Shown here: positions 2,737 through 5,706 of the stretch, piece after piece
Numbering within the stretch: position 1 is the stretch's first letter
Layout: each line of letters begins with the position of its first letter
DNA from: a virus
Taxonomy: Duplodnaviria; Heunggongvirae; Uroviricota; Caudoviricetes
Reading direction: 5' to 3' (one strand)
IMG/VR virus record: IMGVR_UViG_2778261418_000002
Span: 1 to 6,109 of that record
Length of the DNA stretch: 6,109 nt
Translations under genes and position numbers: made by a program
The notes under the pieces: model-generated
Seen by the model: only the letters and a program-made list of their open reading frames with translations
Told to the model about the DNA's origin: nothing
The model's database searches: none

Positions 2737-3402
2737 TCAAACAAACCCAGCCGCTTTCCGGCGTTCATATTCCTGTTTCAGCAACTCAATTGGCGTTGGT
2801 CCCGCAGGACGTATGGGTGCTGCCAGTTGCCTACGGACGGGTGGAACACTCAGTCCGTTACCAACATGCTTTGCCCATTTCGTCAGCTGCCGTTCTGCAA
2901 GCCGTTTTAACTCCCCCTCGGTCATCTGCCGCTCAATCCCCTTTGAACGCATCTCGAGGCAAATGTGATACAGCACGGGCTGAGGCCACGGATATTTATC
3001 GCTTCCGTCGTATCGCCAGGACTCATTGCGCCAGCGGCGATATTCCTCCATCACGTTATCCACCGTCAGACCAAATGGATTTGCCCCGCTCTCCGAAATC
3101 AGCGCCACAAACTCAGCCAGGTCCGGAGGCCATGTTTCACCCGCCCGGCAGCGGTCCATGCACTGGCGGCAGACCTGCCGGATTTGCTGCTCAGTCATCG
3201 CGCCAATCTGTACAATCCAGAGCTTCGAAGGTGCGGCCCCGTTCTTCTGGGTCCAGCGGTTCGAATAAATCTCCCCCATGAGTTCCCACAGCTTCCAGGC
3301 AGTTTCCGTCGTTGATAAATCCGTTTTCACGTTCCCACTGCTCACGTGCTGCCCGAATTTCCTGAACTGCCCGTGATGCGGTGCCACCTGGTGCTGCTGC
3401 AT
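2737..3402 (-). CDS. replication protein P-like (lambda P family helicase loader)
   Basis: C-terminal two thirds align by eye to lambda P as I recall it ([19 protein letters not shown] / [13 protein letters not shown] versus lambda AESYPWKSNAHYWLVTNLY / TDAELRRKAADEL). ATG at 3402-3400 has a strong SD (AAGGGGG, about 6 nt spacing) but overlaps the O-like ORF by about 212 nt out of frame. Alternative in-frame ATG at 3198-3196 forms ATGACTGA with the O-like stop. Start uncertain. Confidence 0.75.
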
Positions 3403-4231
3403 GGTTTACCCCCTTGCTGACTGGTTTAGCCTGCGCCCTGACGTGATTTACGTGACGGGCGAATTTCTGCTCCCACTGAACCTGCGTGAAAACTTTACCC
3501 TCCGCTGCCCAGTAGTCCCGGAAGGCGGCAAGTTCAGCTGGTGTAAATTCCGGCTCCGGCAGAGCCACTCCCCACAGAGCCGCCCGTCGTCGAAAATCCG
3601 GCGACGGATGCCAGCCATCGGTCATCGGAAATTTCCCGATGGGTTCGCTCAGGCCTTCCAGGTAATCAGGTTCCGATGTTTGCAACGGCACGCCATTTGC
3701 CTCACTGACCGGAGCACTCTCGCGCACGCGCGCGTTATGTGTGGGGTTTAATTCTTTATCTGTATCTTTATCTGTCGTGACTCGTCGTGACATGTCGTGA
3801 CATATGCGTGACTCGTCGCGCGCCCCCTCATTCTGTTTTCGTAATTTTTCCCTCTCGCGCTGCGCTCTCTTGCGCTCTGCCGGGGATTTCGCGGTTTGTG
3901 AAACGTTGCCATTGTCCTCTTTCAGTACCTGGCGTTTTTCCCATCCACTGATCAAATCTCCATCAAGTACCCGCCCCTGCATTGCCTGTAAAATTGAATC
4001 AATTACTTCTTCCGTCACATCAAGCGCACTTGCTAAATCTTCCGTCGTGACATCAATGTGACCACGTAGTGACACGCCGTGACATGTCGTGACATTTCGT
4101 GACGCGCTCACCAGAAGGTGGATATACACAGCCATCACTGTTGCGATTGGCTGCCCTGACACCCTGGCAATTGTTCGCCACTTAGGGTCATTTGGCATGT
4201 CATGCCATAATCTGAGCCAGGCGTTAGCCAT
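3191..4231 (-). CDS. putative replication initiator (lambda O position; YdaU/DUF1376-like by recollection)
   Basis: Track ORF 3191..4237 begins with GTG. Preferred start is ATG at 4231-4229 ([18 protein letters not shown]...) with GAGGTG SD. Sits between the CII-like and P-like genes as O does in lambda. Contains two embedded GTGAC repeat arrays and an AT-rich block, as ori lambda lies inside O. The family name is from memory. Confidence 0.65.
3775..3812 (+). repeat. iteron-like array A: four direct (T)CGTGAC repeats at 10-11 bp spacing
   Basis: GTGAC at 3777, 3787, 3797 and 3808. Preceded by an AT-rich block with two ~11-bp direct repeats (tctttatctg, 3752-3774) and an alternating CG tract (3721-3734); followed by GCGCGCC. 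Confidence 0.55.
4044..4103 (+). repeat. iteron-like array B: six direct GTGAC-core repeats at 10-11 bp spacing
   Basis: GTGAC at 4047, 4058, 4069, 4079, 4089 and 4099, all in the same orientation. The motif falls in all three codon phases of the O-like frame (peptide [20 protein letters not shown]). Confidence 0.55.
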
Positions 4232-4302
4232 ACTCACCTCTTTTGATACCGAATCTTTTTACTCACAAATTGCCGGAAGTGATCTGGTATGAATATCGCG
4301 AG

Positions 4303-4728
4303 TCAATGCACAGCCACAATATTTCCTGCAGGGCCACCACGATTCATCTGGTTGAAACCAGCGATCGCCACTGCGACAAAATCATCAGCGTCTCTCACCA
4401 GTCGTTCCCGCGTCTCCACCAGCTCCCGAAAATAGGCTGAACTGTGGCTGCGCATTCGGGCCACCAGCAGAGGTGGCATTGCTTTTTCGATCGCTGGTAA
4501 CAACGCCTGAATTTTTTTAACCGCATCAGGGGTGTCTTTCTCCACCCAGCGGAATATTTTCTGAGTATTGCGAGCCAGGGCTTCCGGATGGCTGTCGTCA
4601 TATAGCTCCGGGAACGTCATACCAAGCTCAAAATAAGCCCGGGTTATTTCAGCTGCCGGAACTTTTTCACCGTCCGGATGCGCCCAGACATTCATCGCCA
4701 TGCGGATGTGTTCATGCTTGATTTTCAT
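4303..4728 (-). CDS. ydaT: YdaT-like protein (CII functional analog in Rac/CP-933P-type prophages)
   Basis: Track ORF 4303..4728, 141 aa. Begins MKIKHEHI and ends IVAVH, matching my recollection of E. coli YdaT in length and termini. Its ATG overlaps the stop of the Cro-like gene (TAATG). Occupies the cII position. Confidence 0.7.
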   Translation of the reverse strand: MKIKHEHIRMAMNVWAHPDGEKVPAAEITRAYFELGMTFPELYDDSHPEALARNTQKIFRWVEKDTPDAVKKIQALLPAIEKAMPPLLVARMRSHSSAYFRELVETRERLVRDADDFVAVAIAGFNQMNRGGPAGNIVAVH

Positions 4729-4940
4729 TAATCATTCTTTCCTTCGTTCGAGGTGCTATCCTGCTTCTTGTAAAGTTCTGGGTTGTATTTCAATTCACCG
4801 TTAGTAATTTCATCCAGTTCCATTGCGCGAAGTTTGGGAATAACTGCTTTCCACCGCACAACAGCCACATGTGAAATTCCAAGAGCCTCAGCTACTAGTC
4901 GCTTTTTTTTGAAATAGCGCAGAACATCATCTTTGAACAT
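4728..4940 (-). CDS. Cro-like HTH regulator (YdaS/DicC-like)
   Basis: Track ORF 4728..4940, 70 aa. ATG at 4940-4938 with AGGAG SD at about 6 nt. HTH signature KRLVAEALGISHVAVVRWK. First gene of the operon divergent from the repressor. Confidence 0.75.
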   Translation of the reverse strand: MFKDDVLRYFKKKRLVAEALGISHVAVVRWKAVIPKLRAMELDEITNGELKYNPELYKKQDSTSNEGKND

Positions 4941-4969
4941 AAAACTCTCCTGTTATTTCGAGCGGGAGG

Positions 4970-4983
4970 GTAACAATAGTTAC
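4970..4983. promoter_or_regulatory. operator-like palindrome GTAAC-AATA-GTTAC (proximal to cro)
   Basis: Perfect 5-bp inverted arms with a 4-bp spacer in the cro/cI intergenic region. Lies where the -10 of a leftward promoter would fall, given the perfect TTGACA -35 at 4996-4991 on the - strand. Confidence 0.45.
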
Positions 4984-5017
4984 ATAGAAATGTCAACCAT
5001 AGCAACATCACTTGGTA

Positions 5018-5031
5018 GTAACATTGGTTAC
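5018..5031. promoter_or_regulatory. operator-like palindrome GTAAC-ATTG-GTTAC (abuts repressor start codon)
   Basis: Same half-sites as the 4970-4983 site. Ends 1 nt before the ATG at 5032. Contains TAACAT, a possible -10 for a leaderless repressor transcript. Confidence 0.45.
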
Positions 5032-5706
5032 ATGAAAAACACTATCAGCGAACGTATTCGGAATCGTCGAAAAGACGTTGGATTAACCCAACAGCAGGTT
5101 GCGAAAGCAATCGGCATATCTCGTGTATCCGTAACAAAATGGGAAAATGGCTCTTCAAAACCTGACGGTGAGAATTTGCATCTACTGTCAAAATTGCTTT
5201 CCAAATCTCCTGAATGGATTCTTTATGGAAAGGACTGTCACGATAAAACCGATGATCTGCGTCTGAATCAGTACCCTTACATTAGTGACAACATCGCCCG
5301 GTTGCCCGTTTTAACGTGGGAACAGGCTGGTTATTGGGATATGAGTTGTCCAGTAACCGAGATTCCTGGTATTAAGAATTGGGTTGATGTCATGACAAAA
5401 ACCGCTGAAAACTCTTTTTTATTGCATGTTGAGGGAGATGCGATGACAAACTCTAACGGCCTCCCAACCATCCCCGACGGATCTACCGTGCTGATCACAC
5501 CATGCTCAAGTAACATTAGAGAACTGGTGGGAAAAATAATCTTAATCCAATTGGAAGGAACGCCAAACGTAACACTAAAAAAAGTTGCGATTGACGGACC
5601 AAACATCTATCTGTTGTCACTGAATCCGCTTTACAAACCCATCGAACTGAATGGTGGTTACACCATTAAAGGTAAAGTTTCACAAATACATCAATACTTA
5701 GACTGA
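5032..5706 (+). CDS. CI-like prophage repressor: N-terminal XRE-type HTH plus C-terminal LexA/S24-like domain with Ala at the nucleophile position
   Basis: Track ORF 4933..5706 begins with TTG. Preferred start is ATG 5032 (MKNTISERIRNRRKDVGLTQQQVAKAIGISRVSVTKWENG), which leaves both operators intergenic; ATG 4990 is an alternative. C-terminal domain aligns by eye to lambda CI/LexA: QAG at the Ala-Gly cleavage position, VEGDAM where lambda has VEGNSM and LexA VSGMSM, and TLKKV...LNPLY versus lambda TFKKL...LNPQY. Confidence 0.8.
   Translation: MKNTISERIRNRRKDVGLTQQQVAKAIGISRVSVTKWENGSSKPDGENLHLLSKLLSKSPEWILYGKDCHDKTDDLRLNQYPYISDNIARLPVLTWEQAGYWDMSCPVTEIPGIKNWVDVMTKTAENSFLLHVEGDAMTNSNGLPTIPDGSTVLITPCSSNIRELVGKIILIQLEGTPNVTLKKVAIDGPNIYLLSLNPLYKPIELNGGYTIKGKVSQIHQYLD

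Follow-up and report, generated by a model that had tools for sequence, protein, structure and literature searches.

The replication initiator gene of an E. coli lambdoid prophage contains two arrays of one short direct repeat, and the second of them (array B) lies within the coding sequence of the DNA-binding domain of the protein. Array B is constrained at the DNA level, co-varies in motif with the first array (array A) and is linked to the N-terminal domain (N-domain) of the initiator. Judging from the sequences of homologous loci, array B is very probably a selected binding-site cluster for the prophage's own initiator.

The replication module and its initiator

The window (the whole stretch of DNA analysed, 6,109 nt) covers the immunity and replication genes of a lambdoid prophage of E. 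coli (Table 1). Positions 3700-4300 showed 99.8% identity to E. coli O126:H45 MIN10. DNA similar to this portion was found in 2,227 of 5,426 complete E. coli genomes (~40%), nearly always in the chromosome (3,173 of 3,181 placements), and only 11 of 72,556 plasmids carried the module; it is not a plasmid-maintained replicon. The lambda-P-like gene lies directly downstream of the initiator gene and overlaps its stop codon. The start codon of the initiator gene, as annotated, is the ATG at 4231 but not the GTG at 4237. No sigma-70-like promoter was found in the region 3600-5100, array B included, and an internal promoter at array B was rejected on this ground.

Table 1. Features of the window and their coordinates
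Feature	Position	Strand	Remarks
DUF1627 and DUF977 genes			also in the window
Lambda-P-like gene	2737-3198	-	probable helicase loader; PF06992 Phage_lambda_P, E 2.8e-16; RefSeq 'replication protein P'
Replication initiator gene	3191-4231	-	346 aa
GC-rich palindrome CGCGCACGCGCGCG	3721-3734		just beyond the AT tract
AT-rich, purine-skewed tract	3747-3775	-	coding strand ACAGATAAAGATACAGATAAAGAATTAAA; GC 0.35; directly after array A
Array A	3774-3813	-	four direct copies of GTCACG on the coding strand, in the initiator linker; probable origin-core iterons
Inverted core copy	4014-4018	+	single; GTCAC on the plus strand, GTGAC on the coding strand; inside L-D-V-T codons
Array B	4044-4106	-	six direct copies of GTCAC(G) on the coding strand; examined for positions, phases, shuffles, covariation and frozen codons
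YdaT-family gene	4303-4728	-
P22-Cro-like gene	4728-4940	-
LexA-family repressor gene	5032-5706	+

The initiator consists of a predicted N-terminal winged-helix domain (residues ~1-104, encoded by 3920-4231), a K/R/E-rich linker in which array A lies, and a DnaT-like ssDNA-binding domain (residues 203-270, encoded by 3428-3631). The last of these gave the only Pfam match of the whole initiator (PF17948 DnaT, 66.3 bits versus a cutoff of 25), and the threshold for the full-length DnaT equivalog was not reached (97.9 versus 201 bits). In PHROGs, the initiator belongs to 'replication initiation protein' families. Pfam and PDB sequence searches with the N-domain returned nothing usable; the fold search alone was informative, with the N-terminal domain of DnaD as the closest structure. 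Going by this closest fold, the N-domain is predicted to be a DnaD-like winged helix. Matches of the N-domain to PF09681 were weak and were obtained in 4 of 49 relatives. The lambda O family of Pfam (Phage_rep_O) matched neither the whole initiator nor the N-domain. The label 'O-like', given to this protein in the initial annotation, is therefore appropriate as an analogy to lambda O but not as a statement of homology, considering the missing lambda O match, the DnaD-like N-domain and the DnaT-like C-domain.

The initiator gene is a mosaic. Its C-terminal half matches ydaU of Rac-SA53 and other 'primosomal protein' genes, whereas matches to the N-terminal half, in which both arrays lie, come from other phages. 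These two types of matches overlap only at 3753-3773, which places the mosaic junction in the AT tract. The N-terminal module (N-module) is combined with a DnaT-like half and a P-like gene, with an 'organizer' half and a DnaC-like ATPase, or with a third type of partner in CFT073; it also occurs as a stand-alone 160-aa protein together with a primase-helicase. Rac-SA53 YdaU was considered as a second example of the two-array gene and rejected, because it shares the C-terminal half only and has another N-domain, other repeats and no array B. GTCACG arrays were found beside LexA-type, RacR, CI-type and Pseudomonas S24 repressors, with or without YdaT. This distribution supports the view that the arrays behave as iterons of one protein: they accompany the N-domain in mosaic recombination and are found with unrelated repressors. 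The repeats are inherited with the DNA-binding domain of the initiator and co-evolve with it.

Some further arrangements were noticed among the relatives. In the Pseudomonas aeruginosa prophages L010 and L011 (3001-3483), the stand-alone 160-aa N-module ends just after array A and the AT tract and is followed by a 135-aa ORF and then by a Toprim-DnaB-type primase-helicase. Some phage annotations divide the initiator gene in two. In several metagenomic relatives, an HNH endonuclease gene lies directly upstream of the N-module or is fused to it (L007, 2696-3001; L009, 2508-3008; proteins P0038, P0063 and P0079).

Array B is constrained at the DNA level and co-varies with array A

The initial annotation had described array B as six plus-strand copies of GTGAC at a spacing of 10-11 bp that occupy all three codon phases, and each part of this description was borne out. 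The copies are located at 4047, 4058, 4069, 4079, 4089 and 4099, with spacings of 11, 11, 10, 10 and 10 bp; they are translated, as had been listed, within SR, VT, CHG, VSL, GHI and DVTT. On the coding strand, they start at positions 134, 144, 154, 164, 175 and 186 of the gene, counted from the GTG at 4237, in codon phases 2, 0, 1, 2, 1 and 0, respectively. In array A, GTGAC is found on the plus strand at 3777, 3787, 3797 and 3808. The reported distance of 239 bp between the arrays (3808 to 4047), their common orientation within one gene and the placement of array B in the N-terminal coding region were all correct. Inside the initiator ORF, there are thus four copies in array A and six in array B, in the same orientation and about one helical turn apart.

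Ten of the 11 plus-strand copies of GTGAC in the window fall within arrays A and B. Counted on both strands of the window, GTGAC occurs 16 times versus 10.5 expected, an unremarkable total; what is unusual is the clustering and phasing of the motif, not its number. Both properties stood up to the permutation check that had been proposed, with a phased run taken as copies at 9-12 bp spacing. Such runs never exceeded two copies in shuffles of codon order (n = 20,000), and a run of six appeared only twice in synonymous shuffles that kept the protein (n = 20,000). The latter test is conservative, because the protein itself is shaped by the repeats.

The conserved unit is longer than 5 bp. GTCACG (coding strand) is present in 4 of the 6 copies of array B and in all four of array A, the consensus of the unit on the coding strand is approximately (A/G)TGTCACGAC, and a repeat finder merged both arrays into one family with a unit of about GTCGTGACAT on the plus strand. 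Array B encodes residues ~44-63, a stretch that runs from the end of helix 3 into a loop of the predicted winged-helix N-domain. When six E. coli versions were aligned, every GTCACG was invariant while the spacers varied. E. coli relatives have six copies in array B (the window and O157 FORC_044) or four, and the difference is a 21-bp in-frame indel equal to two units and 7 residues; array A has four or five copies in these relatives.

A protein search with the N-domain identified homologues down to ~50% identity, and a genome scan yielded 79 loci in Gamma-, Beta- and Alphaproteobacteria. About 85 homologous loci were classed by the 5-mer repeated in array A, and this 5-mer predicts the 5-mer of region B in each of five classes (GTCAC, GAACG, GTAAC, GTGAC and GCAAC). 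In the GTCAC class, region B contains 130 copies of GTCAC in 1,941 nt versus 4 copies in 9,462 nt of neighbouring control coding DNA; in the GAACG, GTAAC, GTGAC and GCAAC classes, the motif of the class itself is the commonest of the five in region B. At full length, the motifs of the lineages are GTCACG, GAACGC, GTAACGCA, GTGACGCA or GCAACGC, with the same motif in both arrays of a lineage. Because each lineage repeats one DNA motif in both arrays, a change in the peptide encoded by one array goes with a change in that of the other (ASRNVTRGH..VT with CH..SRNVT.DKD; ASNATERGRT with SNATERNRT.DKD; VTQCN with VTQCN). The five classes share an ACG(C) core (GTC-ACG, CGA-ACGC, GTA-ACGCA, GTG-ACGCA and GCA-ACGC) and differ in two or three bases 5' of this core. 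Motif class tracks the clade of the N-domain: with region B masked, identity is 0.68 within classes and 0.54 between them.

Codon usage was compared in 30 non-identical loci of the GTCAC class, from E. coli to Pseudomonas and Bordetella. In array B, V47 is encoded by GTC, T48 by ACG, G57 by GGT, H58 by CAC and V61 by GTC, each in 29 of 29 loci; the second Thr is encoded by ACG in 28 of 30 and Ser by TCA in 27 of 29. For V, T, G, R and S residues of equal conservation in other parts of the N-domain, 3-6 codons are used. The proposal of the initial annotation that the repetition is imposed at the DNA level is upheld by these comparisons, which show fixed codons in array B across genera and joint variation of its motif with that of array A over five classes. 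Together, the covariation, the frozen codons and the 21-bp steps in copy number point to selection on array B as DNA.

The two-array layout is widespread but not universal. The copy number of array B ranges from 2 to 6 or more, and array B is missing from nine lineages in which array A and the AT tract are retained (L079, L059, L049, L066, L072, L081, L084, L087 and L090). At least 120 viral contigs contain four phased copies of GTCACG. The N-domain is encoded in 116 of the 120 matches listed; all of the listed matches are on the sense strand of the gene, at a distance of 100-520 nt from the start, and in 84 of the contigs the pattern occurs two times, with the two occurrences separated by 260 or 271 bp. 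The motif array is therefore a specific feature of the gene family, which usually has the two-array layout.

In the AlphaFold2 model, the loop encoded by array B has low confidence, which is lowest where the 7-residue indel falls. In lineages that lack array B, the loop is different and retains only an invariant Arg-Gly. On these two grounds, a surface loop tolerant of change appears to have taken up the iterons. Only in the B-encoded loop are there residues that distinguish the GTCAC class from the GAACG class, and no residues tracking iteron class were found outside it. We considered the loop as the reader of the iterons and judged this unlikely, since L079 and L059 have GTCACG in array A together with an unrelated loop and no array B. 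Two loci suggest that iteron-like repeats may colonise other loops of the N-domain. In L060 (Pseudomonas sp. JAI111), region B is expanded to 123 nt and encodes a peptide with ...ITCHDMSRENVTNVTFVTCHE...; in L084 (Lysobacter), VTSVTSVTNVT is located between helices 1 and 2, outside the usual loop.

A single inverted copy of the core, absent from the earlier list of sites, lies 29 bp from the promoter-distal end of array B. It is present in 27 of 33 loci of the GTCAC class, and its Val72 codon is GTG in 25 of 25. The inverted copy is retained where the peptide becomes DCD (L029 and L035), and in L038 and L013, whose arrays have GTAAC, GTTAC is found at this position. Near the 5' end of the initiator gene, there is also a perfect 15-bp palindrome, TGGCATGTCATGCCA, at 4193-4207 over conserved W-H-D-M-P codons. 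It is invariant in E. coli relatives yet broken in distant ones and is therefore probably peptide-driven.

A probable origin core at array A and the proposed role of array B

Array A is present in nearly all homologous loci, immediately 5' of an AT tract. Across 52 related loci, A+T averages 65% in the 40 nt that follow array A, compared with a gene-wide mean of 45%, and purines make up 73% of the sense strand there. The tract in the window is probably a DNA-unwinding element, to judge from its composition and position. Along the gene, array A is followed by the AT tract and then by the GC-rich palindrome; iterons, an AT-rich tract and a GC-rich element in succession are the classical order of an origin. 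After array B, no AT-rich tract was found, and the 40 nt there average 47% A+T versus the same gene mean. Based on this difference in AT content, array A and the tract form a probable origin core, whereas array B represents sites without an unwinding element. The AT tract at array A alone and the lineages that keep array A without array B indicate that the two arrays are not equivalent.

In every iteron class, array A is followed by a (GATAAA/GATACA)n tract that encodes DKDKD or DTDTD (3747-3775 in the window; L014-L092). Its conservation where the iteron motif differs suggests a sequence-specific element, beyond mere AT-richness. Near-identical forms of the palindrome CGCGCACGCGCGCG occur in E. 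albertii and O157 FORC_044, with 1-2 base changes, and the Serratia prophage L023 has a related one.

The arrays follow the N-domain and not the host, the repressor or the C-terminal partner, so the simplest reading is that the N-domain binds both. With moderate confidence, we propose that array B is an accessory iteron cluster that helps the origin complex, with a positive effect on initiation. Its accessory status, as opposed to that of an independent origin, is suggested by the AT-rich tract being at array A only, and the helper role is favoured by analogy to the extra iterons of Stx phages and to P4 ori/crr. In the proposed mechanism, the N-terminal winged-helix domain of the initiator would bind the 10-11-bp units in both arrays. 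Array A adjoins the AT-rich tract where the strands would open, and array B lies ~240-270 bp upstream in the same orientation; protein bound to array B would contact protein bound to array A by looping or wrapping of the intervening DNA. This contact would raise the local concentration of the initiator and stabilise a large origin complex, the AT tract beside array A would melt, and the DnaT-like C-domain and the P-like protein would then recruit the host helicase. Since array B occupies codons of the DNA-binding domain, its units are translated in three frames and have changed the shape of a loop on the surface of that domain. In the lineages that lack array B, it is evidently not required for origin function, as their gene sequences indicate.

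A more specific form of cooperation, which we entertain only tentatively and consider improbable, is that arrays A and B are the ends of one phased origin complex, with a ~10-bp register across 190-340 bp of coding DNA, that wraps or bridges the code for the DNA-binding domain. The helical register between the arrays has a resultant length of 0.65 at ~9.9 bp, versus a 99th percentile of 0.52 in shifted controls, and is apparent though the intervening coding DNA spans 188-319 bp among lineages; it is only a lead, because the loci are related and gain or loss of whole units preserves register trivially.

The same initiator could also use array B as a negative control element, a possibility that is less probable than not in our estimate but deserves attention. 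It might act by titration of the initiator, by handcuffing with array A or with array B of a sister copy, or as a roadblock to RNA polymerase; in the last case, at 130-190 nt into the initiator gene, a high level of initiator would shut off both the initiator and the P-like gene. Array B indeed has the motif of array A with no AT tract, like the control arrays of iteron plasmids, and sites without an unwinding element are also the typical look of negative control; it is dispensable in some lineages, varies in copy number and lies inside the transcribed 5' part of the operon. On the other hand, the module belongs to integrated temperate phages, for which a limit on copy number offers no obvious gain in lytic growth, and handcuffing for copy-number control is less likely given that the module is almost absent from plasmids. 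Autorepression of the classical operator type is opposed by the lack of any promoter-like site overlapping array B, and in the nearest precedent from experiment, the extra iterons of Stx phages were found to be required, not inhibitory (PMC7466680). It is very unlikely that array B serves for recognition in a second origin, independent of the first. Array B has four to six well-spaced sites, as many as array A, and SPP1 G38P binds two separate origin regions (PMC5737612); nevertheless, we rejected a second origin because no conserved AT tract follows array B, and the local AT-rich segment at 3980-4019 of the window is not kept in GC-rich relatives.

Binding of array B by another protein, namely a host factor, Cro, YdaT or the repressor, is equally improbable. 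The neighbouring genes do encode DNA-binding proteins, and Cro-, YdaT- and repressor-type proteins had been suggested as binders in the initial annotation, but they are not favoured by the occurrence of the same arrays beside different immunity genes. Motifs also differ within a host group (GTCACG or GTAACG in Enterobacterales; GTCACG or GAACGC in Pseudomonas), while motif class goes with the N-domain clade, and a site for a host factor or an immunity protein was rejected on this distribution. It is scarcely credible that array B is functionless, either as a by-product of array A through slippage or gene conversion or as a result of selection on the encoded peptide. Tandem units of 10-11 bp are prone to slippage, the copy number varies and some lineages have no array B. 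However, synonymous sites in the motif are invariant where other synonymous sites are saturated, the 10-11 bp spacing is kept, and the motif persists when frame or peptide changes; selection on the peptide cannot explain how the A- and B-encoded peptides co-change in five classes in different frames.

Relation to known origins and significance

By function, this is probably an iteron origin inside an initiator gene, like ori-lambda and SPP1 oriL, as its layout suggests; in terms of descent, it constitutes a family of its own, whose N-domain is predicted to be DnaD-like. As in ori-lambda with O and in the six-iteron origins of Stx phages (933W and P27), the initiator ORF contains repeats and, after them, an AT-rich tract; the iterons are exchanged as a single module together with the N-terminal DNA-binding half; and a gene for a P-type helicase loader follows. 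In the O genes of Stx phages, two extra iterons lengthen O by 13 residues, and although their binding of O is weak, plasmid establishment requires them (PMC7466680); the extra iterons here likewise lengthen the protein, by 7 residues. Unlike in lambda, the initiator is not a lambda O homologue, its fold being closest to the N-terminal domain of DnaD. Lambda has dyads of ~19 bp in one linker cluster, whereas direct repeats of 10-11 bp form two clusters 239 bp apart here, of which one falls within the codons of the DNA-binding domain.

The oriL of SPP1 is located in the organizer gene and consists of AB-box iterons and an adjacent unwinding element, and G38P also binds oriR (PMC5737612). The present module resembles G38P and the organizers of Gram-positive phages in having the origin, with iterons and an unwinding element, in the organizer gene; as in G38P, there is no AAA+ domain. 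The fold search and the weak PF09681 matches suggest a winged-helix N-domain of the DnaD/organizer type. The module differs in that the second site of SPP1 is far off in the genome but here is in the same gene, sequence similarity is marginal, and the C-terminal domain is DnaT-like.

P4 ori and crr are two clusters, in cis, of one repeat bound by the initiator; one cluster initiates, and initiation also needs the other as a helper, which is believed to work through looping. Arrays A and B share with them the presence of two clusters of the same repeat in cis. In P4, however, the alpha protein is a primase-helicase, crr is several kb from ori and outside the coding sequence of the DNA-binding domain, and the orientation of the repeats differs. 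The control arrays of plasmids (P1 incA, F incC, RK2 and R6K) flank the rep gene, are bound by the same Rep protein and limit copy number by handcuffing. Like array B, they are second arrays of origin-type iterons without an unwinding element; unlike them, array B belongs to a lytic replication module of integrated prophages that is rare on plasmids.

To our knowledge, origins inside initiator genes, a textbook feature of lambda, always have one iteron cluster in the linker. Here, a second cluster overlies the code for a folded DNA-binding domain, with selection at the DNA level from E. coli to Pseudomonas and Burkholderiales. In the open-access literature, we found no account of the arrays of this family, of protein binding to them or of their replication, and no description of a second selected iteron cluster inside the code for a DNA-binding domain that co-varies with the core array over at least five specificities. 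Array B is a clear natural case of overlapping codes, one for protein and one for protein binding, and its role is directly testable, since synonymous recoding can destroy every site of array B and leave the protein unchanged. Array B also provides a sequence signature for finding such origins and their specificity classes. If arrays A and B were the ends of one phased complex, this would be an origin architecture undescribed for phage or plasmid replicons, present in ~40% of complete E. coli genomes and across Proteobacteria, and a switch of specificity would have to rewrite array A, array B and the protein loop together. Array B indicates a further layer, regulatory or architectural, in a replication module that prophages carry in ~40% of complete E. 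coli genomes, including those of O157:H7 strains; in Stx prophages, phage replication is reported to be needed for effective production of Shiga toxin (PMC7466680).
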